Shown here: positions 16,573-31,464 of the stretch, piece by piece
Layout: each line of letters opens with the position of its first letter
How positions within the stretch are numbered: position 1 is the first letter of the stretch
IMG/VR virus record: IMGVR_UViG_2563366860_000002
Source of the DNA: a virus
Taxonomy: Duplodnaviria; Heunggongvirae; Uroviricota; Caudoviricetes
Length of the DNA: 31,464 nucleotides
Direction: 5' to 3' (one strand)
The notes under the pieces: generated by a model
What the model was told of the DNA's origin: nothing
What the model saw: the letters and a program-made list of their open reading frames with translations, nothing else
Databases searched by the model: none
Position numbers and translations under genes: made by a program

Positions 16573-16770
16573 CACTTTTTTAAATCCAACGACAGACGGC
16601 TGGCATTTAAGTATTGTGAAATATTATCAAATGTAATCATCATTGATTTACAAAAGATACATTTTGCCCCGAAAGGATTCATGTCAGAAACATCAAAAGA
16701 TGATGTTCTATACTGGGAACCATGACAACACGGGCATCTAAAGTGAATATGGTTTGTAATATTGTCTACC

Positions 16771-16983
16771 TCAAAGCGCCACTACATGAACAGCGGCAGG
16801 ACCTTTAGGTCCGTTCTCAATACCAAATTCAACTTCCTGATTCTCAGTTAATGTTTTGAAATCGTTGCTCTGAATTGCTGAGAAATGGACAAACACATCT
16901 TTGCTGCCATCTTTCGGCGTGATGAAACCAAAACCTTTTTCAGGGTTAAACCATTTCACTAAACCAGTCATTTTGTTAGACAT
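16771..16983 (-). CDS. cspI: Cold shock protein (CspI-like)
   Basis: 70 aa; [38 protein letters not shown]... with canonical CSD RNP motifs (KGFGFI, VFVHF); ~360 bp AT-rich 5' region consistent with a long cold-shock leader. Confidence 0.9.
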
Positions 16984-17346
16984 AATTATTACCTTTTGAA
17001 GAAATTAGCCCTTGGGCAGAATGGTCCGAAAAAAAATATCAGAGAGAAAAACCAACAAGGAAATCTCAAGAGGTACAAATAATAAAATTATAACAATGAC
17101 TGCTTCAGATAAATTTGTAACAAACCAGAACACCATTAACGCATGATTAACCACCCATAGCAAGGATTACTTTTGTAAAGAAAAACACAGCAATGAAAGA
17201 ATAGCTTTATTTATTAATAATAACGTGTCATTCTGATTAAGACCTTTTATCTTACCCTTAAGATTTCAGGAATTTTGGCTCATGGAAGAGTCCTTTTTAT
17301 TTAAATTTTACATTCCGCGATGTAAATGTTCCGATTTAATATTACC

Positions 17347-19292: not shown

Positions 19293-19350
19293 TTGATTTT
19301 ATTAGTAACAAGTATTTTTTATATTTTAATAATATATTTAAAGCAGATAA

Positions 19351-19375
19351 TAAAAAACCCGCCTGAGCGGGTTTG
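19351..19375. terminator. Intrinsic terminator, potentially bidirectional (small + strand gene / cspB-like gene)
   Basis: AAAAAACCCGCCTGAGCGGGTTTG: stem ACCCGC/GCGGGT with a T-tract on the minus side and a weaker one on the plus side. Confidence 0.5.
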
Positions 19376-19655
19376 AGATTGTGGTGCTTTTTGTGGGAGT
19401 CATCCACTTACGCACTTTGTTTTGCCATGCCAGCAGTTAGCTTCTGCTGTAAAACTATTCATGCAGCAAACCTGCACTTCACCACAATGGTTAGCATACT
19501 TTTCCTGATTAAGATTTTGCCAAATATGCTAGCCATTGTTTCATGTATTGGACCTCCTTACTTTTTATTAAAGAGATCCAATATTCACTACTCTGTCCGT
19601 ATCTCTACTCAGGCATCAGCCTTCTTCGTTATCGTATACAGACGAGCGATGAATT

Positions 19656-19871
19656 TTAATCAGTAATGATGACATTTGCTGCTGCAGGACCTTTAGCACC
19701 ACTCTCTATAGAGAAGGTAACCTTTTGACCTTCAAATAAGGTTCGATAATTATCATTCTGAATCGCAGAAAAATGCACAAACACATCTTTACTACCATCA
19801 ACAGGAGAAATAAAGCCGAAACCTTTATCAGCGTTAAACCATTTTACTAAACCAGTCATTTTATTTGACAT
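19656..19871 (-). CDS. cspB: Cold shock protein (CspB-like)
   Basis: 71 aa; [38 protein letters not shown]...; canonical CSD. Confidence 0.9.
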
Positions 19872-20171
19872 TCTACATTCCTTAACTTGAGCCTTTCGGC
19901 ATAAATGGTTTGCATAACAGAAACGACTTCGTACTTAATTGGAGAGACTCAAAGAAGGAATAAGTGAATAACACCTGAAATGAGAACTGCTTTAGTAAAC
20001 TACTTCGTATATCGTCTGTTCTTCAAACCGACGCAATCATTAACGCATAGTTGAACATATGAAGCAATGTTTATTTTAGACATCCAGCCATCTTCAACCC
20101 CATCAAAAAACTATAGCTTTCTTCAGGAACGTGTGTATAGTGCGCCAAGTTATCAGTATTAAGGAATTTTT

Positions 20172-20384
20172 TTGTCCCGTAAAATGACAGGAATTGTCAA
20201 AACCTTTGACGGCAAAAGCGGCAAGGGTCTTATCACCCCATCCGATGGTCGTATCGATGTCCAGCTTCATGTTTCAGCGCTCAATCTCCGCGATGCAGAA
20301 GAAATTACCACCGGATTACGCGTGGAATTTTGCCGGATAAATGGTCTGCGTGGCCCTTCAGCTGCCAATGTTTACCTTTCATGA
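20172..20384 (+). CDS. cspF: Cold shock domain protein (CspF/CspH-like, divergent paralog)
   Basis: 70 aa from TTG (AAGGA RBS) or 66 aa from ATG at 20184; [36 protein letters not shown]...; degenerate RNP motifs; divergent from the cspB-like gene. Confidence 0.75.
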
Positions 20385-20438
20385 GCTATATTAAAGCTTT
20401 AATTTCAGGCCCCATCGGATCACACATGGAGAGTTTTT

Positions 20439-20528
20439 ATGAATAACCCCGTCTGTCTTGATGACTGGTTGATTGGCTTTAAAAGCTTATGCTGTACTTT
20501 GGCCGTAATAGCTCTGCTAATAATATAA
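20439..20528 (+). CDS. Possible small hydrophobic peptide (29 aa)
   Basis: ATG with GGAGAG ~6 nt upstream; [29 protein letters not shown]; may be a leader or membrane peptide, or spurious. Confidence 0.25.
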
Positions 20529-20668
20529 TAAGCAGACTCATTGTGTTTAGGGACATTGTACTGGAAGAAAATATTTTAAACATCAGGCAAATAACCAAGT
20601 CACCAGCTAAATAATAAGTTAACAGACATGAGTCCCGGGATGAGATTCAACATTACCATTGCCCCATT

Positions 20669-20709
20669 TAAAGCACAAAACCCGCTCATCAGCGGGTTTT
20701 CTACTTTTT
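20669..20709. terminator. tR'-like intrinsic terminator downstream of the late promoter (bidirectional; also terminates the cspF-like transcript)
   Basis: Stem ACCCGC-TCATCA-GCGGGT flanked by T-tracts on both strands; ~40 nt downstream of the predicted pR' start site on the minus strand. Confidence 0.55.
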
Positions 20710-20739
20710 CTTAACGTCGGGTATACAAAGCCCATCGTT

Positions 20740-20780
20740 GAAAAAATTTTATCCATATTTTTTGAAAAATGCAAACATCA
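20740..20780 (-). promoter_or_regulatory. pR'-like late promoter (with presumed qut site) just downstream of Q
   Basis: Minus strand TTGCAT - 17 nt - TAAAAT at ~20774..20746, within 60 nt of the Q stop. Confidence 0.5.
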
Positions 20781-20805
20781 TGTCGCCATCTTCAGCAAAA
20801 ATCAT

Positions 20806-21558
20806 TTATCTCGTCACCTTCCTCAATTGCGCTTCCGCGTATGCTTCTTCCTGCCAGCACTTTGTTACCAGTTTATCAATGACGTCCGCATACCCCTTAT
20901 ACCACTGATAATCGGTCAGGTCTGGTACCAGCTTCTGGACATGACGTCGTGCCAGCGTGGTCGGTAAACGACTAAATCGGTTTCCATTACAACGCCCACA
21001 AATCTTATATACCGGTACGCCATGAAACCGGGTTCTTTTTTCATCCAGAACAATCCCTTTACCCTTACACCCTCTGCACGCTGTGCTGACTTCGCCCTTA
21101 CCATGGCAATGCTGACATAGTTCCTTCACCCATTCTTCCTTGATTACAGATTCCCCGCGTCTGTAGTGTTTCACCACTTCGCGCAATACATTATAAAATC
21201 CCGTACCTGAACAATGCTCACAGCGAGCCTTACTTGCCGCAGACCTGGAGTAATCAGCAAAGGCAAAATTCACAAGGTAAGGAATAATCTGTAACCGGAT
21301 TTCTTCACTCAATTTGTTCAATGTCGGGTTATCCAGTGCCATCGCGTAATTTAGCAGGCCTTCAATCGCAAACTGAGGGTCCTGAACACCAACTTTTGCC
21401 AGAAATAAGGCCAACCCAAGTGGTGCTTTCGACTGCACCATCCCCTGCGCTGCCATTACATCCGTAATTGTTAAACAACCGGTGCCTGTCGCTGGAGCGT
21501 CATCGCTCAATTTTGGAGATTTTGGGGAGTAATATTTTGGTAAGGCTTCAAGGTTCAT
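20806..21558 (-). CDS. Q: Late gene antiterminator Q
   Basis: 250 aa; Cys/His-rich zinc-binding region (CEHCSGTG...CQHCHGKG...CRGCKGKG...CGRCNG); position immediately upstream of pR'/tR' and the lysis cassette; same length as the Qin-type Q homolog. Confidence 0.85.
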   Translation of the reverse strand: MNLEALPKYYSPKSPKLSDDAPATGTGCLTITDVMAAQGMVQSKAPLGLALFLAKVGVQDPQFAIEGLLNYAMALDNPTLNKLSEEIRLQIIPYLVNFAFADYSRSAASKARCEHCSGTGFYNVLREVVKHYRRGESVIKEEWVKELCQHCHGKGEVSTACRGCKGKGIVLDEKRTRFHGVPVYKICGRCNGNRFSRLPTTLARRHVQKLVPDLTDYQWYKGYADVIDKLVTKCWQEEAYAEAQLRKVTR

Positions 21559-21571
21559 GCTCGTTCTCCAC

Positions 21572-22660
21572 TTACGCCAGTACGCCAGTTGCCAGCGCGC
21601 GATCGATAAAACGAAATATCAGCTCCAGTTGGGAGCCATACTTCTCTTCAAATGCCACTGTATCCGTATGCAGCTCGTTGTGATGCTTTCTGCACAAAGG
21701 CAACACAAAGAGATCATGTGCTTTTGTTCCCATTCCGCCCTGCCCGTGACCAATCAGATGATGCGGATCGTCGGCTGGCATACCGCAGCAAGCACACGGC
21801 TGTGTCTTAACCCAACGAGTGTATTTCTCCTTAACCCAGCGGCGACGTTTAGGCAGCTTCATGAAAGATTCCGGAGACTCTGGATCAACGGTGATGCTTA
21901 CCACCGTCTTTTCCTGTGGTGGTTTTTGTTGCTGGTGGGCGTAAGGCAACGGTGCAAGATTTTCTGTGCGTTGTTTCAATATGCTGGTGGCGGTCTGCTC
22001 TCCCTGTACGATGTCGCTTTCGCGGTACACCGAGCAGATTTTTTCCGCTGGTAATCCCAGCGAACGACGCGATACAGCCTCAGGTAGTGCATCCACCACC
22101 TGATTGCAGACCGCCCACCAGGATAATTCAGCCAAAGATAATTCCCGCTCCTGCGTACCGCTTATTGCGTGACGGATGACGTCAATCACCCATGCTGTCA
22201 GATTTTGTTGAGCAAGCAGCTCCAGTGATTCCGATGTCTGGTCACGCAGTTGGTTGTCGCAGTGCCAGCACAACACCATTGCGCCGGTACCATAACGGTG
22301 AATGACTGTTTCAGTGTGATGGTAATCGCCATTAGGCCACTGGCAGGATGTAACATGACGTAATAGCCAGTCAGACAATGCGCCAACGCCGCCAGTAGCA
22401 CGAATCACCCGTTCGTTACTAAAAAACGGCAGCAATGTTTTGTCTTCTGCCAGCGGCTGGCGAACGGCAGGAACGACTCCGGATGGCAGATTTCGCATGC
22501 TTTTTGGTTCCGGTTCCACCAGCACTCGAGGATTATGAAATATCTGTATGGATTCACGGCCCGGCTTAAGGACCACCAGCCCAAGCTCAGGCACCAGAAC
22601 AGGTCTAAGTAATACCCGCACGTTACCTCCAGATCCGTTGCTGGAAAGTGCGGGACGCAC
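21572..22660 (-). CDS. DUF968 (YdfU-like) protein with C-terminal HNH/zinc-finger-like motif
   Basis: 362 aa from GTG; C-terminal ...QPCACCGMPADDPHHLIGHGQGG...LPLCRKHHNELH; occupies the nin/Q-proximal slot. Confidence 0.75.
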   Translation of the reverse strand: MRPALSSNGSGGNVRVLLRPVLVPELGLVVLKPGRESIQIFHNPRVLVEPEPKSMRNLPSGVVPAVRQPLAEDKTLLPFFSNERVIRATGGVGALSDWLLRHVTSCQWPNGDYHHTETVIHRYGTGAMVLCWHCDNQLRDQTSESLELLAQQNLTAWVIDVIRHAISGTQERELSLAELSWWAVCNQVVDALPEAVSRRSLGLPAEKICSVYRESDIVQGEQTATSILKQRTENLAPLPYAHQQQKPPQEKTVVSITVDPESPESFMKLPKRRRWVKEKYTRWVKTQPCACCGMPADDPHHLIGHGQGGMGTKAHDLFVLPLCRKHHNELHTDTVAFEEKYGSQLELIFRFIDRALATGVLA

Positions 22661-22901
22661 GTGGTGGGCGTTCGGAATAAGGCAGCCTGACAGAGATTAT
22701 CCAGTGCCGATAGTCGAGACTGAGAGCTTTCTTAACCTCGAACCCGCGCCTGCGGTAAGAATGAATCAGCCATTCGGCCTGTTCTGCAGTGCATGGAGGG
22801 TGCTGGAACCATTCAGACTTGAATGCGTGAGAATACCGCCCGTGCGTGCAGGCAAGAACGGGCGAATTATCAGAATTGTAATATTTTACGTTGCGTGCCA
22901 T
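22623..22901 (-). CDS. Hypothetical protein (92 aa), overlaps the DUF968 gene start by 38 nt
   Basis: ATG with GGAG RBS; MARNVKYYNSDNSPVLACTHGRYSHAFKSEWFQHPPCTAEQ...; could instead be a frameshifted N-terminal part of the downstream gene. Confidence 0.5.
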   Translation of the reverse strand: MARNVKYYNSDNSPVLACTHGRYSHAFKSEWFQHPPCTAEQAEWLIHSYRRRGFEVKKALSLDYRHWIISVRLPYSERPPRASRTFQQRIWR

Positions 22902-22967
22902 CGGTTTTCTCCGGTGGCACGGTGTTACTCAGCGGGAGTTCAGCCCCGCGCAAGATTGTAGATGAGT

Positions 22968-23219
22968 TTATTCTTCTGCAAAAGCAGAAAAGCCAGCTTT
23001 TATTCCGATCTCTTTCAATGCCTGTAATGAAGTGACAAACTCACCTTCGCGCAAGATAAATCCGTCCGTGACCCGAGCATCCACAAAATTAATTAACGCA
23101 GCCCCATTCTTTCGCAAACACATAATGCGGTAATGACTAACAAGATTTCCATTTTCAACGCACACAGCATAGAGGCCATCTTCACAAAAAATTTTACGCA
23201 GTTCTTCGATGTTCATCAT
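22968..23219 (-). CDS. Rem-like small prophage protein (83 aa)
   Basis: Tandem ATG start with GGAAGG RBS; length and position (just downstream of hokD, upstream of DUF968) match my recollection of rem in Qin; sequence identity not verified. Confidence 0.55.
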   Translation of the reverse strand: MMNIEELRKIFCEDGLYAVCVENGNLVSHYRIMCLRKNGAALINFVDARVTDGFILREGEFVTSLQALKEIGIKAGFSAFAEE

Positions 23220-23334
23220 CAGAATCCTTCCGGATAATTAGCTCTCCCCTTTAAGGGACCATCCCTCTTATCCCTGCGCGCTACTTAAGTATTTTTGATT
23301 CTATTCCGGCACCGTCCAGATCTTCAAACGCGTT

Positions 23335-23367
23335 GAAAATAAAAACAAAAACCCGCCGAAGCGGGTT
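23335..23367 (-). terminator. Intrinsic terminator downstream of hokD
   Basis: Minus strand ACCCGC-TTCG-GCGGGT followed by TTTTTGTTTTTATTTT. Confidence 0.6.
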
Positions 23368-23435
23368 AAGTGCGGGTGCGTTGAGGATGCCTGCCACATC
23401 AGAGGTGGCGAGGGATTTCTCCCTCGCCGGGTCTC

Positions 23436-23591
23436 TTACTCCTCAGGTTCGTAAGCTGTGAAGACAGCGACCTCCGTCTGGCCGGTTCGGATTCGTACCT
23501 CGCAGAGGTCTTTCCTCGTTACCAGTGCCGTCACTATGACGGTTAAACAGATGACGATCAGGGCGATTAACATCGCCTTTTGCTGCTTCAT
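23436..23591 (-). CDS. hokD: Hok/Gef-family type I toxin (HokD/RelF-like), 51 aa
   Basis: MKQQKAMLIALIVICLTVIVTALVTRKDLCEVRIRTGQTEVAVFTAYEPEE; single TM; the overlapping longer frame (to 23648) is consistent with a mok-like leader ORF. Confidence 0.9.
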   Translation of the reverse strand: MKQQKAMLIALIVICLTVIVTALVTRKDLCEVRIRTGQTEVAVFTAYEPEE

Positions 23592-23599
23592 AGCCTGCT

Positions 23600-23720
23600 T
23601 CTCCTTGCCTTTCGGCTCGTAAGAGGCTAACCTACATGTGTCTAGCATGAAATTGGCCTCAGATTAATGTTAAGCGTCTTGCAGGACGCGTAATGTTAAC
23701 TGGGGCTTTTCTCTATCTGC
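23600..23720 (+). ncRNA. Putative Sok-like antisense RNA opposite the hok mRNA leader (approximate position)
   Basis: Inferred from hok/sok paradigm only; the hok leader region is ORF-poor; no promoter or terminator mapped. Confidence 0.3.
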
Positions 23721-23828
23721 CTTTCAGTGTTCATGCCTGAGACAGATAGCCTCAAGCACCCGCAGCCATTCTACTTAACTCACGTCACCTCGCCAATATG
23801 AAATCAATCAGAAAGGTGATCCATAAAA

Positions 23829-24515
23829 TCACTCCTTCTCTTCTTTTCCGTAGTGGAGTTGGCCAATTTTGATAAGAGGGCGTCCCTGAGATTTGCGGTG
23901 TAGATTGGTATCGCGCAGAGAATACACACAGCCACAATATTCCTGCTGATAGAATTTTTCGCGCTTGCTGATTTCAATCATACGGGACGAGCCGCCCTGC
24001 TTGCGCCAGTTATAATCCCAGTACACCATACCCGGATAATGCGCAACAGCTCGCCGCCCACACTCGTTAACCTGCTGCATATTTTTCCAGCGTGAAATGC
24101 CCAGTGAACTGCTGATCACACTGAAACCATTTTCAGCAGCGTACAACGCTGTCCGCTCAAAACGCATGTCAAAACACATGGTACAACGGATCCCCCTCTC
24201 AGGCTCCCATTCCATTCCTTTGGCACGTTCAAACCAGTTGTCGGTGTCGTAATCAGCATCGATAAACGGCACGCCGTGTTGTTCAGCAAAGCGAATATTT
24301 TCATCCTTACGAATTAAATACTCTTTCTGAGGATGAATGTTCGGGTTGTAGAAAAAGATGGTGTAGTCGATTCCCGAGGCCTGAAGCGCCTCCATCACTT
24401 CACCGGAACATGGAGCACAGCAAGAGTGCAGTAGTAGTTTGTTTGCCCCGTTTGGGAGCTCCAATTTAGGCCGTTTGAAATCAGCAATAGTCATAAATAT
24501 TTTTATTGGGGTCAT
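23829..24515 (-). CDS. DUF208 / QueH-like protein (epoxyqueuosine reductase family homolog)
   Basis: 228 aa; conserved Cys motifs [17 protein letters not shown] and C-terminal [10 protein letters not shown] as I recall for DUF208/QueH; start ambiguous (24515 or 24494), no clear SD. Confidence 0.7.
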
Positions 24516-24668
24516 GAAAATAGCACAGAGTGTAGCATCAGAGCAGGGCTATCGGGAATATATGTCTAAATCTGGTAATATCTGGTTTTGACGCAAAGCG
24601 GACAACCACGCTGGCTCTACCCTGCGCCATGAAAATGTCAATTCACATCTGAACTAATGCTCTTTAAT

Positions 24669-25094
24669 CTAGTAACGTCTAAAATACCTAACATTTCCTT
24701 GATAAAATGCCAGTACACGCTGCATAGCTTCGCTCTTCCGGCACTCGCGACAGATTATATTCAGGCGCCTGTCGTAGCGGCGTATTTCGCCGTCTGGTAA
24801 CGACCAGATAAGGTCCGGATCAACCACTGCAGGTTTCTTCACCTTTGCCCTTGAGAGTTTTTTGCGAGCATTTTGCCAGTCCTTACGCGCCTGTTCAGAC
24901 GGGAATAACCCGTAACCAGAGTTGTATACATCGCCACTGGCAACCAGCTCTCTGGCGAGAACACTCATCAGATATCTTGTCGCACCTGTCTTGGCTTCCA
25001 GTTGCCGCAACGTCTCGCGACCGCTCAGACGTACAAGTTCAACAACCTGCCCTTTAATTTTTTCCCGCTCTTCTTGTGTAAATACTTTTGCCAT
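24669..25094 (-). CDS. Hypothetical nin-region protein (141 aa)
   Basis: ORF 24669..25109 (TTG); ATG at 25094 with GGAGG RBS; basic C-terminus with CxxC (ICRECRK); no family recognised. Confidence 0.6.
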   Translation of the reverse strand: MAKVFTQEEREKIKGQVVELVRLSGRETLRQLEAKTGATRYLMSVLARELVASGDVYNSGYGLFPSEQARKDWQNARKKLSRAKVKKPAVVDPDLIWSLPDGEIRRYDRRLNIICRECRKSEAMQRVLAFYQGNVRYFRRY

Positions 25095-25109
25095 AAGCGC
25101 CTCCGGCAA

Positions 25110-25880
25110 TCACTTTTCCGATACAACACGGCGGGAAGAATCAGTAATCTGTCGAACAATATCCCGGTGCTTGTTCAGCTCCCGCAGCGCGGCGCAGACT
25201 CGCTCCCACTTCTGAACATCACTTTTCGCCCTGCGCAGCGCCAGGTTTGCCCTGCGAAGGGACGGAAAAATCAGCTCATCTGCTTGCGTTTCGGTAAACG
25301 ATGGCAACGGCTGCACAATGTCCGCCACAGTTTCTGTTTTAATTTCTTCCTGTGTTGCGGCTTCCCGGACTGGTAACGCAGCACCTGCTGGCTGAGGAAA
25401 GGCCTTACCATCACTTTCCGTTACCAGCGCGGCTTTCGGCTCTGCTGGTAAATTATCGCCCGGCATGCAGTAACGAAATTTACCGTTCTGATTAACGCGT
25501 GCCAGCCGCCCCGTTGCGGTTACCACCGCCAGCGTGGAAGCAACCTTGCGAGTACTGACACCGAACTTACCCGCCAGTTCCTCACACGTTTTAGCCCCAT
25601 CCTGACCGATAAACTCAATCATCATGTCTGCGGTAACTTTTTGTTCGACCTCCCCGGTCAGCATATCCTGTGCTTCAGATTTTACTGGCCGCTCTTCGGT
25701 TACCCGGGATTCACCTTCGCCAGCCAGAAACCAGGTGTGACCAGTTTTATCAACGACGCCTTTTCTTTTGAGTTCCCACAGCTCGTTGACAGCCTCTTCA
25801 CGACTGATTCCAAGGCGAGCTGCCACCACATGTGAAGAGGCTTTTTTCAGTGCTTTCAGTGCGTCAGATACGGTTTCCAT
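25110..25880 (-). CDS. DUF1627-like prophage protein (N-terminal winged-HTH-like)
   Basis: 256 aa; ATG start; N-terminal ...AARLGISREEAVNELWELKRKGVV...; family call from memory. Confidence 0.65.
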   Translation of the reverse strand: METVSDALKALKKASSHVVAARLGISREEAVNELWELKRKGVVDKTGHTWFLAGEGESRVTEERPVKSEAQDMLTGEVEQKVTADMMIEFIGQDGAKTCEELAGKFGVSTRKVASTLAVVTATGRLARVNQNGKFRYCMPGDNLPAEPKAALVTESDGKAFPQPAGAALPVREAATQEEIKTETVADIVQPLPSFTETQADELIFPSLRRANLALRRAKSDVQKWERVCAALRELNKHRDIVRQITDSSRRVVSEK

Positions 25881-25901
25881 TAAAATTTCCTCCGGACAAA
25901 A

Positions 25902-26648
25902 TTACTTCACAACCCTCATATTGCTGACATTTGGACGCCAGCTATCCCAGTTAAACGTCACCCATCGACCACCGTTCATGGTCATGCGGTCCATAATCCT
26001 CTCACCAAGAAGCGTACTCATTGCGGCATGATTCAGGTTTGTTAACATCCCGACACTGCACAGTGATGCTGTCCGGCGATCAATTATCTGGTGCAATACC
26101 ACCTGCTCGTTTTTCGTCTCCCGCTGAACGCCTATTTCATCCAGGACCAGCAAATCAACCCCGCAAAGCTCCTGTAAAAATTTTTCCCCGGATTTGCCGT
26201 TGTCGTAGCTGTCATGCAACACGCTCATGACGTCAGACACGGTGACGATAATCACGCTGCGCCCCTTCACCATCAGCCGGTTGCCCATCGCCGCTGCAAG
26301 GTGATTTTTCCCGGTGCCGGTTTTACCGCTGAACACAAAATTCGTGCACCCGGTCATCAGTTCGTCAGCTATGGATTTGGCCTGGCTCAGCGCGTATTTT
26401 TGCCCGTCGTTCTGCACCTGATAATTTGCAAACGAGCATTTGCTGTGCAGAGGCTGGATGCCCGAACGATTCAGGATTTTTTCCACCCGCAACTGGCGAT
26501 TCTGGCGGTTAATCTCCTCGCTGCGTTTTCGTCCTTCAGCAAGTTGCCATTCCCGCCACTCCTCCACCGTCCGGTACGGTGGAACCGACCCCTGTGGTGC
26601 AAGTCTGCGAATACGTTCAAGAACCCCAACTGCCGCAATGTTTTTCAT
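25902..26648 (-). CDS. DnaC-like replicative helicase loader (IstB-like AAA+ ATPase)
   Basis: 248 aa; Walker A FSGKTGTGKNHLAAA, Walker B LLVLDEIG; immediately downstream of the O-like initiator. Confidence 0.9.
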   Translation of the reverse strand: MKNIAAVGVLERIRRLAPQGSVPPYRTVEEWREWQLAEGRKRSEEINRQNRQLRVEKILNRSGIQPLHSKCSFANYQVQNDGQKYALSQAKSIADELMTGCTNFVFSGKTGTGKNHLAAAMGNRLMVKGRSVIIVTVSDVMSVLHDSYDNGKSGEKFLQELCGVDLLVLDEIGVQRETKNEQVVLHQIIDRRTASLCSVGMLTNLNHAAMSTLLGERIMDRMTMNGGRWVTFNWDSWRPNVSNMRVVK

Positions 26649-26654
26649 GACACG

Positions 26655-27617
26655 TCACCCCCTGAATCCCGGCGGTATTTCAGTGTCCGGTTCAGAAATG
26701 TGATTCACGCAACGCTGCGCAGGCGAACGCCCCAGGCGGATAACCAGTTCATCCCATTTTTCCCGGAGTTTTGCCGGACTCATGATGTTTTTTACCCAGA
26801 ACGAATCCCGCTGGAGACGCCCAAACATTTCACAAATTTGTCTGTGAGTTCTGCCATCCAGCATCCGCATTGTGCGAACGTCATTGGCCCATGCTGTCCA
26901 GTTGGGTTCTTTCGGTCTAGTGATCTCGCCATCATAGCTGGCCGCCTGCTCGTAAAGACTCACGATTCGTCCCCAGATCCACTGTGCGCACACCAAATCT
27001 TCCTGACTTCCCCACTGGCGTTTTTTCGCACTGAACACAACCGCGTCAGGGTGTCGGGTTAAAAAATCCTGTTCAGCCGTCTGCGGGTCCGGTTGCGAAG
27101 CGTCCGGACAAGAAGATCTTTTATCTGACGGATCAGGTTTTAATACTGACGGATCGGGGTCAATCATCGCCCCCCTAATCGGCAGTTTTTTATCAACAGT
27201 TGATCCATCAAAATTTGACGGGTCAACCGTTGAGGGGTCAATATTTGACGGGTCAACTGTTAACGGGTCATTTTTTGCCGGGCTAATTTTTCTTTTCGGT
27301 TTATATGACTCACGCGCCGCCGCCGCAGCTGCTTCGAGTTTTTCCACATTAAGCCGATAGATATTGCTTACATTACGCCCACCGACCTTACGCTCTTCCT
27401 TCGTCAGCCAGCCCTCTTTCGCCAGTTCTGCAATAGCCGATTTCACTGTGGATTCACTTCTTGCACCGATCTGACGCCGGATAGTTTCAATGGCAGGCCA
27501 TGACACGCCCTCGTCATTGCTGTAGTCTGCAAGACGGGCCATAACCGCCACCCTGGATAAGATCATGCCGGTGAAGGCGCACCCTTCCCAGACAAGACCA
27601 TGAAGCTTGCTGCTCAT
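26655..27617 (-). CDS. Replication initiator (lambda O-like; N-terminal DNA-binding domain)
   Basis: ORF 26655..27632 (GTG); ATG at 27617 with GGGGG RBS; iteron array inside the coding region encodes a repetitive DPSNIDPSTVDPSNFDGSTVD peptide, as in lambda O/ori. Confidence 0.85.
   Translation of the reverse strand: MSSKLHGLVWEGCAFTGMILSRVAVMARLADYSNDEGVSWPAIETIRRQIGARSESTVKSAIAELAKEGWLTKEERKVGGRNVSNIYRLNVEKLEAAAAAARESYKPKRKISPAKNDPLTVDPSNIDPSTVDPSNFDGSTVDKKLPIRGAMIDPDPSVLKPDPSDKRSSCPDASQPDPQTAEQDFLTRHPDAVVFSAKKRQWGSQEDLVCAQWIWGRIVSLYEQAASYDGEITRPKEPNWTAWANDVRTMRMLDGRTHRQICEMFGRLQRDSFWVKNIMSPAKLREKWDELVIRLGRSPAQRCVNHISEPDTEIPPGFRG
27120..27300. repeat. Replication origin: iteron array inside the O-like gene followed by an AT-rich stretch
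   Basis: About 6-7 direct ~15 bp repeats (TTGACGGGTCAACCG / TTGAGGGGTCAATAT / TTGACGGGTCAACTG / TTAACGGGTCATTTT; degenerate copies TGACGGATCAGG, TGACGGATCGGGGTCAAT), then TAATTTTTCTTTTCGGTTTATATGA. Confidence 0.6.
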
Positions 27618-27639
27618 AAAACCCCCGAACACCGTGCTT

Positions 27640-28065
27640 TTAGTGCATCACCACAGCATTCCCTGCCGGGCCGCCGCGATTCATCTGGTCATACAAAACA
27701 ACCGCTGACGCAACAAAATCATCGACATCCTTCACCAGCCGATCCCTCCGTTCGACGATCTCACGGTAATATTCAGAACTGTGGCTGCGCATACGGGCCA
27801 CCAGCAAAGGCGGCATCGCCTTTTCGATCGCCGGTAACAGAGCCTGCATTTTTTCAACAGCATCAGGGGTGTCTTTCTCTACCCAGCGGAAAATTTTCTG
27901 GGTATTGCGAGCCAGGGCTTCCGGATGGCTGTCGTCATACAGTTCTGGGAACGTCATACCCAACTCAAAATAAGCCTGGGTTATTCCAGCTGCTGGAACT
28001 TTTTCGCCATCAGGACGCGCCCAGGCATTCATCGCCATGCGGATGTGTTCATGCTTGATTTTCAT
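27640..28065 (-). CDS. YdaT-like protein (putative toxin-domain regulator in cII position)
   Basis: 141 aa; ATG with GGAG RBS; overlaps the Cro/YdaS-like gene end by 17 nt; family assignment from memory of Rac ydaS-ydaT. Confidence 0.6.
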   Translation of the reverse strand: MKIKHEHIRMAMNAWARPDGEKVPAAGITQAYFELGMTFPELYDDSHPEALARNTQKIFRWVEKDTPDAVEKMQALLPAIEKAMPPLLVARMRSHSSEYYREIVERRDRLVKDVDDFVASAVVLYDQMNRGGPAGNAVVMH

Positions 28066-28330
28066 GAATCAAGCTCCTAGAAAGTGGTTGTGTTAACGTT
28101 TTGGTATCTTCCAGCTCGGGCCAAATATTCATCCAATCAAAAGGCCTTAGTTGCTGACGTGTAACTTCACCATTACTGGCTCGCTCAATAAGGACACATA
28201 ACGATGCCCCTAACACTTGACCTTTACTCAATGCCTTTCTTAGATAACCGATGCTGGTACCACACTCGCATGCAAACATACGCTGTTCATCTGACGAAAG
28301 AGAATTGAGAAATATTCTTAATTCTTCCAT
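28049..28330 (-). CDS. Cro/YdaS-like HTH regulator (first gene of the early-right operon)
   Basis: 93 aa; strong AAGGAG RBS; HTH-like ECGTSIGYLRKALSKGQV; divergent from the repressor across an operator-bearing intergenic region. Confidence 0.75.
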   Translation of the reverse strand: MEELRIFLNSLSSDEQRMFACECGTSIGYLRKALSKGQVLGASLCVLIERASNGEVTRQQLRPFDWMNIWPELEDTKTLTQPLSRSLIHENQA

Positions 28331-28431
28331 AGCTACTCCTTAGTAAACACAGCAAAAGAATACCCACAGGTAAACAAAAGTCAATACCCACAGGTTGTTT
28401 ACCTTGCGGTAATCGCATCTATTATTTACCT
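28331..28431. promoter_or_regulatory. Divergent promoter/operator region (OR-like) between repressor and Cro-like genes
   Basis: Direct repeats of ATACCCACAGGT (two identical 12-mers ~24 bp apart) plus related GTAAAC/GTTTACC half-sites and TTTACCTATGG over the repressor start. Confidence 0.6.
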
Positions 28432-28851
28432 ATGGACAAATATGAATTTAGACGACAGCAACTCATCAAAATTCGTGATGAGAAATGCGATGGTAAAGCG
28501 GTTAACGTGGCCAGAAAGATCGGGCGCGAGCCTTCTTATGTATCAAGAATGTTGTACCCAGAGGGGAAAAAGGGAAAAAAACGGATCGCTGATGATATGG
28601 TGGAGATTATCGAAGAGTCCTTTGGGTTACCCCGGGGATGGATGGATGGTATCGTTTCATCATCAACGAACACAGCCTCCAGTTATGAAACAAGGGTTCT
28701 AACGCCACGACAACGTATTTTTTTAGATCTCTTAGACGAACTGCCAGAAAGTGAAGCGGATAAATTATTAAAAACTCTTGAAGAGAAAAAACAGTATTAC
28801 AATATGATCTACGAAGAAATCCGTAAAAAGAAAGCACAAAACGCATCATAG
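28432..28851 (+). CDS. CI-like prophage repressor (XRE-family HTH; no LexA-type peptidase domain seen)
   Basis: 139 aa; N-terminal HTH (AVNVARKIGREPSYVSRML); C-terminal region lacks S24 Ser/Lys autocleavage features; divergent from the Cro-like gene. Confidence 0.75.
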   Translation: MDKYEFRRQQLIKIRDEKCDGKAVNVARKIGREPSYVSRMLYPEGKKGKKRIADDMVEIIEESFGLPRGWMDGIVSSSTNTASSYETRVLTPRQRIFLDLLDELPESEADKLLKTLEEKKQYYNMIYEEIRKKKAQNAS

Positions 28852-28889
28852 CTCACCAAACAACTAGTCACCAGTTAAGACACCGCAAA

Positions 28890-28935
28890 AATTTACCCAT
28901 GGGTATTTACTTTTTAAATACCTATGGGTATCCTT
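28890..28935. promoter_or_regulatory. Second operator-like cluster (OL-like) downstream of the repressor gene
   Basis: Palindrome TACCCATGGGTA and near-palindrome ATACCTATGGGTAT ~25 bp apart, sharing the TACCCA/TGGGTA half-sites of the OR-like repeats; TTTACT...TAAATA promoter-like spacing. Confidence 0.45.
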
Positions 28936-29116
28936 CTTTTCATACCAACCCACCCCGCCCCACAGAATGCAGGGCAATACTTCGAGTTACCAGGCAGTGG
29001 TCAGGGGTTAAGTAGCCAGCCCGAGGCGTAAGAACATGACGGCAGGGTTCAACTTTAATAACTATGCAGCAGGTTTTTGTTCCGCTACCCCGGCGTTAAG
29101 GGGAAATGAGGTCAGC

Positions 29117-29269
29117 ATGGATACTATCGATCTTGGCAACAGCGAATCTCTGGTATGTGGCGTGTTCCCCAACCAGGACGGTACGTTCACCGCGATGACG
29201 TATACCAGAAGCAAAACGTTTAAAACTGAAGCTGGCGCGCGTCGCTGGTTAACCAGAAACACTGACTGA
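29117..29269 (+). CDS. Small hypothetical protein (50 aa)
   Basis: ORF 29036..29269; ATG at 29117 with GAGG RBS; MDTIDLGNSESLVCGVFPNQDGTFTAMTYTRSKTFKTEAGARRWLTRNTD. Confidence 0.5.
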   Translation: MDTIDLGNSESLVCGVFPNQDGTFTAMTYTRSKTFKTEAGARRWLTRNTD

Positions 29270-29280
29270 TGAGGTTGACG

Positions 29281-29682
29281 ATGGAATTTAAAGATTTACC
29301 AGTACCATTCCAGGAAATGGCATCGAATGTGGTTCGCTCTCAACTGGCGACTCTTGACCTGAGTACCGTAGAAAAGGAAACCATCGATACTATATCCGGT
29401 AACGTGCGTCGTGCCTTTATAGGTCTGTATGAAGAGAAGCGCCTATTCGGCGGACAGAATTCGCCTGAAAACAAGAATCAAGCAAATGATGAGAAGCTGA
29501 AACACATTATCGCCTTACTTTTGGAAGACGCAAAACGTCTACAGCAACTGGAACCAAATGCAGGCACAGAGGCCCGCATTTGGATTGCCATGAAATCACT
29601 CAAATGTGAAAGCAGTGATTATTTCAAAACAACAATTAAAACTACTCAACTTTCGGGAGAGCTACTGAAGAAATTGCCATAA
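29281..29682 (+). CDS. Hypothetical protein (133 aa)
   Basis: ATG at 29281 with GAGG upstream, 12 nt after the previous stop; soluble, acidic; 3' end overlaps the convergent minus-strand gene. Confidence 0.55.
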   Translation: MEFKDLPVPFQEMASNVVRSQLATLDLSTVEKETIDTISGNVRRAFIGLYEEKRLFGGQNSPENKNQANDEKLKHIIALLLEDAKRLQQLEPNAGTEARIWIAMKSLKCESSDYFKTTIKTTQLSGELLKKLP

Positions 29683-29920
29683 GAGCATAGTCTTTCTCTT
29701 GTTCTGCAAGATGAGCATTAATACCTGGTATGGTTTTTTCAAATTTATCTATCTGTTGAATAACAACTTCGCGGTATACGTTTGTTTTTGTACCACCAAG
29801 CGCAGCCGTTAATGCAGAAAGCATATTTAGTATCATATCAGTGCGATATGAAAGAATCCTGATAGCTTCATCTTGTTCTTCAATAATAGATTGCAGGGCC
29901 TCAATTTGCTTTTTATCCAT
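29642..29920 (-). CDS. Hypothetical protein (92 aa), convergent
   Basis: ORF 29642..29959; ATG at 29920 with strong AGGAGG RBS; predicted helical (MDKKQIEALQSIIEEQDEAIRILSYRTDMILNML...). Confidence 0.6.
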   Translation of the reverse strand: MDKKQIEALQSIIEEQDEAIRILSYRTDMILNMLSALTAALGGTKTNVYREVVIQQIDKFEKTIPGINAHLAEQEKDYALMAISSVALPKVE

Positions 29921-29939
29921 TTCACCCTCCTGAGGGTTG

Positions 29940-30480
29940 GTAATTAAGGAGTTCTCCACGGGTCAGGTGGAGTGCGTGCGCCGGACACGGGTGAGCATCC
30001 GGCACTGACAGCTTACTGAAAGGATATGTCCCTGAAAAGTCAGGGCATAACGCGAAAGCGCACGGCGAAATTGGTCTCTCTGTACGGTGTCGTTAAATTT
30101 AGTTCGACCGTGCGCTTCCGGTTGTGGCACTCCGCGAAATGGCGCGGCGGTAAGTATGGCTGGGGTTTCCTCCATTGCTCCAGAAAATGCACCGGGTTGT
30201 CAGGTTGACCATACGCTTAAGTGACAACCCCGCTACAACGCCCTCTGTTATCAATTTTCTGGTGACATTTGGCGGTATCAGTTTTACTCCGTGACTGCTC
30301 TGCCGCCCTTTTTAAAGTGAATTTTGTGATGCGGTGAATGCGGCTATGCGCACGCGGAACAGTTAAAGCAGTAAGGCGGTATTTTACGGGCGTAACGAGC
30401 ATCAACTAACCCGGCGTTAATTGTTAACTGGTTAACGTCACCTGGAGGCACCAGGCACTGCATCACAAAATTCATTGTTG
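29940..30480. other. GC-rich, ORF-poor structured segment (candidate structured RNA / antitermination or regulatory region)
   Basis: No ORF with an RBS; many stable hairpins (CCGGACACGGGTGAGCATCCGG; boxB-like CCCTGA-AAAG-TCAGGG; GCGCACGG...CCGTGCGC; GGTTGTCA...TGACAACC); ends with GCCGCCCTTTTT. Confidence 0.35.
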
Positions 30481-30491
30481 AGGACGCGATA

Positions 30492-30680
30492 ATGGAAACG
30501 TTATTACCAAACGTTAATACGTCTGAAGGTTGTTTTGATATTGGTGTTCTGCTCAGTAACCGGGAGTTTACTGAAGATGCCATTAATATGAGGAAATATG
30601 AGCCTTATCTGCTCAATGATAATTCCATACTTTCCCGAATTGCTCTTCTTGAACTTGGTATTTTCGGAGAACGTCAATGA
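30492..30680 (+). CDS. Hypothetical early-left protein (62 aa)
   Basis: ATG with GAGGA RBS; preceded by dyad CGTTAA-N-TTAACG; stop overlaps next start (ATGA). Confidence 0.5.
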   Translation: METLLPNVNTSEGCFDIGVLLSNREFTEDAINMRKYEPYLLNDNSILSRIALLELGIFGERQ

Positions 30681-30865
30681 CTTCAGCATTTGCACTGATG
30701 ATGACGGTTTTTCTTATAACGGGTGAATCACAGAATGTGATTACCGGAATTTATGCAAGTAAAGAATCCTGCCTCCAGGCAAGAGACGAGCAAAAAATTT
30801 CTGGTGAATGCCTCCCGCTAAAAAAAGTATCGCTGTACCTGAATAACGAAACACCGGCTGGATAA
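30677..30865 (+). CDS. Small membrane protein (62 aa)
   Basis: Translationally coupled to the upstream ORF; N-terminal hydrophobic segment AFALMMTVFLITG. Confidence 0.5.
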   Translation: MTSAFALMMTVFLITGESQNVITGIYASKESCLQARDEQKISGECLPLKKVSLYLNNETPAG

Positions 30866-30960
30866 CCCTCCAGCCATATTAACACCATACCAACGGATTA
30901 AAAATGCCAGCAATGGCAGGGATTCGTTCACCCTGAAATCTGTAATGAGGTTAAAACAAA

Positions 30961-31464
30961 ATGAGTAAGGTCTTTATTTGCGCTGCTATTCCTGATGAAC
31001 AGGCCATAAAAGAAGATAGCGCTGTTGCGGTGGCCACTGCCATTGAAGCTGGTGATGAGCGTCGCGCACGCGCAAAATTTCATTGGCAATTTCTGGAGCA
31101 ATTCCCTGCAGCTCAGGACTGCGCTTATAAATTTATTGTCTGTGAGGATAAACCCGGCATACCCCGCCCTGCCCTCGATTCCTGGGATGCTGAATATATG
31201 CAGGAAAACCGCTGGGATGAGGAGTCTGCTTCCTTTGTCCCGGTTGAGACTGAATCAGATCCGATGAACGTCACTTTTGACAAGCTGGCCCCTGAAGTAC
31301 AGAACGCTGTCATGGTTAAGTTCGACACATGTGAAAACATCACCGTTGATATGGTTATTAGCGCACAGGAATTGTTGCAGGAAGACATGGCAACATTCGA
31401 CGGACATATCGTTGAAGCGTTGATGAAAATGCCAGAAGTTAACGCCATGTATCCGGAGCTTAAG
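30961..31464 (+). CDS. Hypothetical acidic early-left protein, 5' partial (open to window end, at least 168 codons)
   Basis: ATG at 30961 with GAGG ~10 nt upstream; frame open to end of window (hand-verified codon by codon); absent from ORF track because it has no stop in the window. Confidence 0.6.
   Translation, partial: MSKVFICAAIPDEQAIKEDSAVAVATAIEAGDERRARAKFHWQFLEQFPAAQDCAYKFIVCEDKPGIPRPALDSWDAEYMQENRWDEESASFVPVETESDPMNVTFDKLAPEVQNAVMVKFDTCENITVDMVISAQELLQEDMATFDGHIVEALMKMPEVNAMYPELK

Follow-up and report, generated by a model that had tools for sequence, protein, structure and literature searches.

A probable dicA-type immunity switch in a lambda-like Escherichia coli prophage pairs a short chimeric repressor with two candidate operator sets

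The dicC-dicA-dicBp switch of the Qin prophage in Escherichia coli K-12 is built around DicA, a short repressor lacking an Ala-Gly cleavage site, and its operators have been described in both the dicA-dicC and the dicA-dicBp intervals (PMC10448788). The switch is bistable, with a dicBp promoter that is unresponsive to mitomycin C, turns on spontaneously in ca. 1% of K-12 cells independently of Rem and RecA, is induced by urea and heat in a DicC-dependent manner, and is derepressed 165-fold by Rem, a protein encoded next to hokD whose mechanism and trigger are reported as unknown (PMC10448788). Short repressors of the Gifsy type are inactivated by LexA-controlled antirepressors that are effective across different operator specificities and heteroimmune phages (PMC3121763), and PaaR2/YdaS of CP-933P form a footprinted switch with operators of the right operator (OR) and left promoter (PL) types (PMC8630535). 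Here, we analyzed a 31,464-bp stretch of viral DNA (IMG/VR record IMGVR_UViG_2563366860_000002; hereafter, the window) which represents an E. coli lambda-like prophage with tail, head, portal, and terminase genes, a Q antiterminator, and lysis genes. Its region around position 28400 is likely the immunity (lysis-lysogeny) switch of this prophage, similar to dicC-dicA-dicBp, in which a CI-type maintenance repressor of 139 amino acids (28432 to 28851, plus strand) would bind the sequence TACC-N4-GGTA via its N-terminal domain. The locus is a previously unannotated dicA-type lambdoid immunity region of textbook design, and its distinguishing feature is that a DNA-binding domain and operators known from repressors with an S24 peptidase domain are combined with a C-terminus of the DicA type. 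The evidence comes from features of the sequence, from how they are conserved, and from the way in which they co-vary with the binding domain.

The repressor gene and a cro-like gene (28049 to 28330, minus strand) diverge across 101 bp, and repeats are found in this interval and again past the repressor stop codon. A first-pass annotation of the window had named two intergenic and two downstream repeats, all of which we recovered: AATACCCACAGGT is present as two identical copies at 28359 to 28371 and 28383 to 28395, the palindrome TACCCATGGGTA lies at 28894 to 28905, and ATACCTATGGGTAT at 28918 to 28931. The two intergenic copies counted there stand, and a third intergenic repeat, TACCTTGCGGTA at 28400 to 28411, had been overlooked. 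Common to all repeats is the core TACC-N4-GGTA, 12 bp with eight specified bases, which would extend to an operator consensus of about TTACCyryrGGTAA. The motif search that had been proposed was run across the whole window and found four exact cores, at 28361, 28400, 28894, and 28919, all at the repressor locus (within 28361 to 28930), compared to a mean of 0.18 and a maximum of two in 100 dinucleotide-preserving shuffles. With one mismatch allowed, a fifth copy appears at 28385, the GGTT variant TACCCACAGGTT. The bare hexamer TACCCA is only weakly enriched in the window (19 matches vs. 11.2 expected) and uninformative alone, so we dropped it in favor of the 12-bp core, which carries the information.

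All five sites are placed on predicted promoters in a manner familiar from lambdoid switches. The OR1-like operator TACCCACAGGTA (28361 to 28372; exact motif) would lie in the spacer of PR, the predicted promoter toward cro (28357 to 28384, minus strand; −35 TTGACT at 28384 to 28379, −10 TATTCT at 28362 to 28357; 9/12 in a consensus scan), with a two-base overlap with its −10, and the OR2-like operator (28385 to 28396; one-mismatch motif) abuts its −35. The OR3-like operator (exact motif) overlaps the −35 hexamer and the spacer of PRM, the predicted promoter of the repressor gene (28398 to 28425, plus strand; −35 TTTACC at 28398 to 28403, −10 TATTAT at 28420 to 28425; likewise 9/12). The left operator (OL) set starts 43 bp past the repressor stop codon, where the OL2-like operator (28894 to 28905; exact motif) lies directly upstream of the −35 of a predicted PL, the equivalent of dicBp (28906 to 28934, plus strand; −35 TTTACT at 28906 to 28911, −10 TATCCT at 28929 to 28934), and the OL1-like operator TACCTATGGGTA (28919 to 28930; exact motif) overlaps the spacer and −10 of this promoter. 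PL was read by eye and has 8 of 12 consensus positions, which is under the threshold of the promoter scanner. Relative to the repressor ATG, the OR sites stand at −71, −47, and −32 (spacings of 24 and 15 bp), and the OL pair is 25 bp apart. PR, on the minus strand, and PL are built alike as a succession of site, −35, second site, and a −10 whose first two bases are also the final two of the second site. Three features of a lambdoid switch appear to be assembled here: divergent repressor and cro genes, several sites over PR and PRM, and a second set on a PL that is co-directional with the repressor gene.

In such a layout, repressor bound to OR1 and OR2 would control the leftward PR and with it cro, the CII-like gene, and the replication genes, while OR3 over the PRM −35 would mediate negative autoregulation of the repressor. 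OL2 and OL1 would bracket the −35 of PL and overlap its −10, and this promoter would drive ydfA, DicF, and dicB outward. OR2 is centered ca. 41.5 bp ahead of the predicted PRM start, near the position that OR2 has in lambda, so that it could also activate PRM. The center-to-center distances of 24 to 25 bp between OR1 and OR2 and within the OL pair are near the spacing of the cooperatively bound operator pairs of lambda, and the conserved weak GGTT half-site in OR2 would fit a reliance on pairwise cooperativity. Since the PRM −10 puts transcription initiation on or close to the first base of the start codon (28432) and no Shine-Dalgarno sequence precedes this codon, the repressor mRNA is probably leaderless, for which lambda cI and PaaR2 are precedents (PMC8630535). 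A possible weak fourth site or half-site, TACCTATGGACA (28427 to 28438; repeat family D1), departs from the core at two positions, has a left half (TTTACCTATGG) that is good and shared with OL1, and sits over the repressor start codon and the predicted transcription start; it has no counterpart in the alignment of related loci and could be either an additional autoregulatory site or due to chance.

The same arrangement recurs with the DNA-binding domain in most related loci. Scanning one genome per bacterial species, we retrieved 21 loci that encode the N-terminal domain of the repressor, from Edwardsiella, Klebsiella, Brenneria, Pantoea, Leclercia, Yersinia, Atlantibacter, Arsenophonus, and a Hydrogenophilaceae metagenome-assembled genome. 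The motif lies 71 to 75 bp before the ATG in all of them except the two most distant ones (L025 and L026; 42% to 49% identity), an OR3 equivalent is found at −32/−33 in most (at −35 in L021), and 11 loci have a GGTT variant equivalent to OR2 at −47 to −50. A downstream operator pair with a spacing of 24 to 26 bp follows 43 to 1837 bp past the stop codon. In a total of 93 sites, positions A2, C3, and C4 of the half-sites, together with their partners, exceed 97% conservation; the four central bases and the inter-site spacers, on the other hand, are variable. The promoter elements are retained along with the sites: TCAA just before OR2 (i.e., the TTGA of the PR −35 on the opposite strand) and a TAnnnT −10 for PR, ATTTACC at OR3, which holds the PRM −35, and a TA...T block 7 to 12 bp ahead of the ATG that matches the PRM −10. 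At OL, all 21 aligned loci have a TTGAC or TTTAC −35 directly after the first site and a TAnnnT −10 that begins with the last two bases of the second site. Within this repressor family, Klebsiella loci (L007 and L010 to L013) have a modified operator layout, with TTTGCTATATTTT instead of the motif at the OR2 position and AACC for TACC in one OL site.

Among phages, the operator core of the window is shared by mEp043 (Aguilavirus), in which exact or one-mismatch sites precede the cI start codon at −72, −47, and −32 (spacings of 25 and 15 bp vs. 24 and 15 bp in the window). This phage also carries an operator pair with a 25-bp spacing on the putative PL of its annotation, with the same promoter layout, and encodes a Cro protein (gp51) that is 73% identical to that of the window. 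Among the titles and abstracts listed for mEp043, none dealt with its operators, and the operator strings turned up only in unrelated primer sequences in the searchable open-access literature. In mEp043 (locus L002, 5053 to 5076), the same half-sites also form a broader inverted repeat, TTACCTG-N10-CAGGTAA, ca. 30 to 40 bp upstream of the OL pair. It is likewise found upstream of the OL pairs of two S24-type loci (L014 and L017), is absent from the window, and may represent a third, differently spaced OL element.

A natural exchange of the binding domain gives further support to the operators. Tritos shares DNA with the window at 27651 to 28077 (84% identity), 28735 to 28850 (75%; the C-terminal domain of the repressor), and 28948 to 29248 (95%), but not at 28078 to 28734, which comprises cro, OR, and the DNA-binding domain, nor in the 97 bp from 28851 to 28947, which comprise OL. 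Its own repeat, about ATGTAC-N6-GTACAT, occurs three times at OR and twice at OL. Because Tritos replaces cro, OR, the DNA-binding domain, and OL by its own versions, both operator sets seem to travel together with the DNA-binding domain and Cro, as would be expected for true operators. The notion of the first-pass annotation that OR- and OL-like sets bracket the repressor gene is therefore strongly supported, given that motif, spacing, and promoter overlap are found in 20/21 related loci and in mEp043 and that both sets are replaced together in Tritos.

The repressor itself is composed of a helix-turn-helix domain (residues 1 to 72), a flexible linker (ca. 73 to 90), and a DicA-type helical C-terminal domain (88 to 139). 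Its AlphaFold model (mean predicted local distance difference test score of 84.9) has a four-helix N-terminal domain with the helix-turn-helix at residues 23 to 40, a disordered linker at 77 to 86, and C-terminal helices at 92 to 103 and 106 to 138. Foldseek searches against the Protein Data Bank (PDB) place the N-terminal domain among XRE/lambda-repressor-like folds, with a weak top match to 5D50, the antirepressor-controlled Rep of Salmonella phage SPC32H; a PDB sequence search gave nothing significant (best E value of 0.078). The 139-residue open reading frame (ORF) matches PHROG 5736 ("transcriptional regulator") over its full length and is labeled as "hypothetical protein" in RefSeq. Its relatives form two classes, one of ca. 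135 to 140 amino acids with similarity over the full length and one of large LexA-family proteins (221 to 242 amino acids) with a Peptidase_S24 domain (PF00717), of which only the first ca. 75 to 85 residues match the repressor, at 65% to 82% identity. To the latter class belongs the cI protein of mEp043, with 76% identity over residues 1 to 75 of the repressor. The C-terminus instead resembles DicA: Residues 86 to 136 align to positions 81 to 131 of the NCBIfam profile DicA (NF007257; E = 1.9e-5), though the score of 24.5 bits is far from the cutoff of 101 for full-length DicA, BLASTP gives 33% identity to the DicA C-terminus over 46 residues (E = 2e-7), and both proteins share an LxPxxxxLLxLFxxLPxSE motif. 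The N-terminal domain shows no significant similarity to the N-terminus of DicA and has a predicted fold that resembles XRE/lambda-repressor-like domains. Finally, the 139-residue CI of Tritos is 72% identical to the repressor in its C-terminus and has an unrelated N-terminal domain.

Taken together, these similarities indicate that the repressor is a natural chimera of the DNA-binding domain of an mEp043-type S24 cI and a DicA-type C-terminus that replaces the peptidase, with the junction in the linker past a conserved GWMDGI. The absence of a LexA-type (S24) cleavage domain had already been suspected from the sequence and is borne out by our results, as the repressor has no Pfam family match at E ≤ 0.1 (and hence none to S24 or HTH_3), is only 139 amino acids long, and contains no Ala-Gly or Cys-Gly bond, while the relatives with the same N-terminal domain have 221 to 242 residues and PF00717. 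With a DicA-type domain in place of the S24 peptidase, RecA-stimulated self-cleavage should not be open to the repressor as a route of inactivation. About 110 to 120 of 5,426 complete E. coli genomes carry the locus, and the protein cluster of the repressor comprises 543 member sequences. Our analysis proposes a function for this widespread E. coli prophage gene and, for one immunity group found in many Enterobacterales, establishes which operator motif and promoter layout are used. The repressor gene carries a homopolymer tract, A7 at 28575 to 28581 after A5 at 28567 to 28571, in the stretch that encodes Gly-Lys-Lys-Gly-Lys-Lys. Several database proteins (P0010 to P0017 and P0019) start in an overlapping ORF at 28442 to 28702 and enter the repressor frame at the A7 tract, which implies frameshifted and probably inactive alleles, or sequencing errors, in several genomes.

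If not by autocleavage, then how would this prophage be induced? The first-pass annotation had suggested an antirepressor encoded elsewhere in the prophage, and a search for one uncovered an ortholog of Rem at 22968 to 23219 (minus strand) that shares 81 of 83 residues with the K-12 protein. Precomputed data assign the exact Rem protein of the window to PF27490, and our own Pfam profile scan of the window proteins left it unmatched. Induction other than by autocleavage, e.g., via an antirepressor, is therefore plausible, because the C-terminus of the repressor is DicA-like, DicA is relieved by Rem, and Rem is encoded in the window. The likeliest route would be an antirepressor such as Rem, 5.2 kb away, and/or stochastic flipping of repressor and Cro as for DicA and DicC. 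That Rem in particular relieves the repressor of the window is a serious possibility that falls somewhat short of being probable. Elsewhere, the identical Rem protein sits by classical DicA repressors, and among 80 Rem-carrying IMG/VR contigs we found 56 with a DicA-type repressor, one with the chimera of the window (L113), 23 with no detectable repressor, and none with an S24 repressor. More distant homologs of Rem are encoded in PPompW (which has dicA) and Rac prophages. These associations would loosely fit an action of Rem through the C-terminal domain, the sole region that these repressors have in common.

Several points weigh against this interpretation of the locus. The Rem copies in the 80 contigs are at least 98% identical, and the co-occurrence with these repressors (57/57) thus reflects related prophages that are not independent of each other. 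Of 10 further genomic settings in which the identical repressor occurs, only one encodes Rem nearby, the rem gene resides on a 423-bp indel cassette that was brought in with Qin-like DNA, and recognition by the same Rem is uncertain because the C-terminal domain is only 33% identical to that of DicA. No exact LexA box (CTGT-N8-ACAG) is present in the window, and one-mismatch matches occur at chance level (10 vs. 10.3 expected) with none near rem. Beyond Rem, the promoters are consensus matches (9/12 for PR and PRM, 8/12 and thus subthreshold for PL), and it is from sequence that we infer operator binding, promoter starts, and the induction route at the window locus.

An alternative that we regard as unlikely, though it survives best, is that there is no dedicated inducer at all and that Rem is a passenger gene, with stochastic or stress-driven flipping arising from repressor instability and Cro feedback. 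The spontaneous switching of dicBp in ca. 1% of K-12 cells without Rem or RecA and its induction by urea and heat via DicC (PMC10448788) speak for this explanation, as does the absence of rem from 9/10 other contexts of the identical repressor. Against it stand the 165-fold derepression of K-12 dicBp by Rem and the presence of Rem together with the same repressor both in the window and in L113; the two routes are also not mutually exclusive.

Alternatively, induction could still be tied to the SOS response by an antirepressor under LexA control, whose gene would lie at another place in the prophage or in a second prophage that acts in trans, as for Gifsy phages; we consider this quite improbable. 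It is known that Gifsy-type LexA-controlled antirepressors act across heteroimmune phages (PMC3121763), and since most prophages with the exact repressor of the window have no rem nearby, some other factor may serve them. However, the lack of LexA boxes above chance in the window, which was the only part of the genome searched, and the reported indifference of K-12 dicBp to mitomycin C (PMC10448788) speak against an SOS-dependent route. Related prophages encode Ash and a Rha-domain protein, either as a fused 284-codon gene just upstream of dicB under PL (L045, 11943 to 12797) or as a two-gene module at the far prophage end by a truncated ompW (L005, 7504 to 8333; NZ_AP022173.1), and neither a LexA box nor the repressor motif was found near these genes in L045 or L005. 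We dropped this ash/Rha module as a candidate antirepressor because, with the window being a mosaic, it is not established for this genome and because it has no LexA box or operator motif nearby.

Returning to the chimeric repressor with Rem as a candidate inducer, it is tempting to view the DicA-type C-terminal domain as a portable module for oligomerization and Rem sensitivity, an idea that we put forward only tentatively and consider rather doubtful. This type of C-terminus is fused to at least three unrelated DNA-binding domains (those of DicA, Tritos CI, and the repressor of the window). If the idea is correct, then the replacement of S24 by a DicA-type module would rewire the induction of an mEp043-type cI from RecA cleavage to Rem while leaving immunity specificity, i.e., the operators and Cro, untouched, and the window, in which Rem accompanies a repressor related to DicA in its C-terminus alone, would offer a natural test case for the mechanism of Rem. 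More broadly, nature has here combined one DNA-binding domain with either an S24 or a DicA-type C-terminus and one C-terminus with three binding domains, and these swaps make it testable how Rem inactivates DicA-type repressors and which part of a repressor sets the induction route.

The palindromes past the repressor stop codon might also be nothing but an intrinsic terminator, and a terminator scan indeed picks 28894 to 28930 with a T-rich tail. The OL hairpin (28894 to 28940, plus strand) has a 16-bp stem followed by UCCUUCUUUU and a minimum free energy of about −22 to −23.4 kcal/mol (z = −5.3 for the fold at −23.4 kcal/mol), no other terminator is found between the stop codon and OL in the window, and a separate, GC-rich terminator occupies this interval in every relative whose OL is near the stop codon. 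Yet the same pair is found in ca. 20 loci at the widely varying distances from the stop codon given above, usually downstream of a separate terminator, and with the −35 and −10 always placed alike. The OL sequences moreover match the OR sites and are exchanged together with the DNA-binding domain in Tritos, and the hairpin is AU-rich with a tail that is interrupted by C residues. A role as terminator only is consequently very improbable. As the window lacks a separate terminator and has, of the loci compared, the most stable OL hairpin, the OL pair may nevertheless double as the terminator of the repressor transcript, which we see as possible if somewhat doubtful; termination at OL would then shield the cell from read-through into dicF and dicB. 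Finally, that the repeats are chance similarities or relics without regulatory role can practically be dismissed, since the only point in favor of it is the shortness of a core with eight specified bases, whereas 0/100 shuffles reached four exact matches and position, spacing, and half-site bases are kept across genera amid diverged surroundings.

To the left of the switch, and with all genes on the minus strand, cro (YdaS-type helix-turn-helix protein; phrog_35, weak PF15943) is followed by a CII-like/YdaT family gene (27640 to 28065; PF06254; phrog_163, CII-like activator) and then, based on profile matches, by a replication initiator (26655 to 27632) and a DnaC-like loader (25902 to 26648). 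To the right, on the plus strand, the early-left operon begins with a ydfA-like (DUF1391) gene (29118 to 29269; PF07151; 91% DNA identity to the K-12 ydfA region), which is annotated in a 100%-identical E. coli stretch, and includes the small RNA DicF (30257 to 30308; Rfam RF00039, 77 bits vs. a gathering score of 48). An E. coli genome with 99.8% identity to positions 23341 to 31464 of the window continues with dicB, an exonuclease gene, xis, and int. A conserved ORF of 92 to 105 codons (phrog_18692; 29642 to 29959, minus strand) lies antisense in this operon between the ydfA-like genes and DicF.

The window as a whole is a mosaic. Its segment from 19317 to 23605, with cspB/cspF, the Q antiterminator, ydfU, rem, and hokD, is 99.5% identical to Qin of K-12, while the replication, immunity, and early-left block from 23341 to 31464 is 99.8% identical to an ompW-integrated prophage; identity to NZ_AP022173.1 is 100% over 27600 to 30400. 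The exact rem-repressor junction was found in no complete E. coli genome searched, with the best match covering 93%. The 423-bp segment that carries rem (22918 to 23341) corresponds to ca. 57 bp in otherwise 99.8%-identical ompW prophages; flanked by the hokD terminator and a 92-codon ORF, it therefore resembles a small insertion/deletion cassette. Elsewhere on the minus strand, the window carries two cspA-type thermoregulator leaders of cold-shock paralogs (16744 to 17129 and 19640 to 20032), sok antitoxin RNA with the hokD toxin gene (23586 to 23761), and, as a metabolic passenger in the early-right region between the replication genes and hokD, a gene for epoxyqueuosine reductase QueH (23829 to 24515).

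Compared with known systems, the window shares with PaaR2/YdaS and lambda CI/Cro the divergent repressor and cro genes, several operators on PR and PRM, a second set at PL, and (as predicted for the window) a leaderless repressor mRNA, while operator sequences differ from those of both, PaaR2 is followed by a toxin-antitoxin pair, and lambda CI has the S24 domain that the repressor of the window lacks. With regard to Gifsy-type systems, this prophage has a small repressor without S24 and, with Rem, a candidate antirepressor encoded outside the immunity region, but no LexA box near rem or elsewhere in the window, and tblastn gave no match to a Gifsy repressor. From mEp043 and its kin it differs in the repressors, which in these phages have 221 to 242 amino acids with PF00717 and are presumably RecA-inducible. 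The OL of these S24-type relatives also lies 70 to 1837 bp past the stop codon, usually behind a separate terminator and sometimes other genes, and the downstream operon of mEp043 begins with N and not with ydfA, dicF, and dicB. Tritos has a repressor of the same length (139 amino acids) in the same position, flanked by YdaT-like, ydfA, DicF, and dicB, but its N-terminal domain, Cro, and OR/OL repeat are all unlike those of the window, and we found no match to Rem in Tritos.

The most comprehensive likeness is to the Qin locus of K-12, which has the same gene order of a cro-like gene, repressor, promoter, ydfA, DicF, and dicB, a similarly short repressor without S24 (135 to 139 residues for both) with a related C-terminal domain, a rem gene adjoining hokD, and repeats that are intergenic and again present ca. 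40 to 90 bp past the dicA stop codon around a TTGACC −35 ahead of ydfA. The two differ in that their DNA-binding domains are unrelated, that Cro is YdaS-like in the window vs. DicC/P22_Cro-like in Qin, that the operators are TACC-N4-GGTA vs. (as read by eye) roughly TTAGY-N3/4-RGCTAA, and that the window prophage has a full set of structural genes, unlike Qin. The distance of ca. 500 bp between the sets flanking the repressor, which the first-pass annotation had highlighted, is real yet not peculiar to this locus, as immunity regions of this class, the Qin dicA locus included, are normally spaced in this way. In lambda, OL lies ca. 2.3 kb from OR. Homology between K-12 and the window resumes at 29079, and the repressor gene of the window immediately precedes the ydfA-dicF-dicB operon with its promoter (DUF1391 at 29118, DicF at 30257, and dicB in the 99.8%-identical genome), just as DicA does in Qin.

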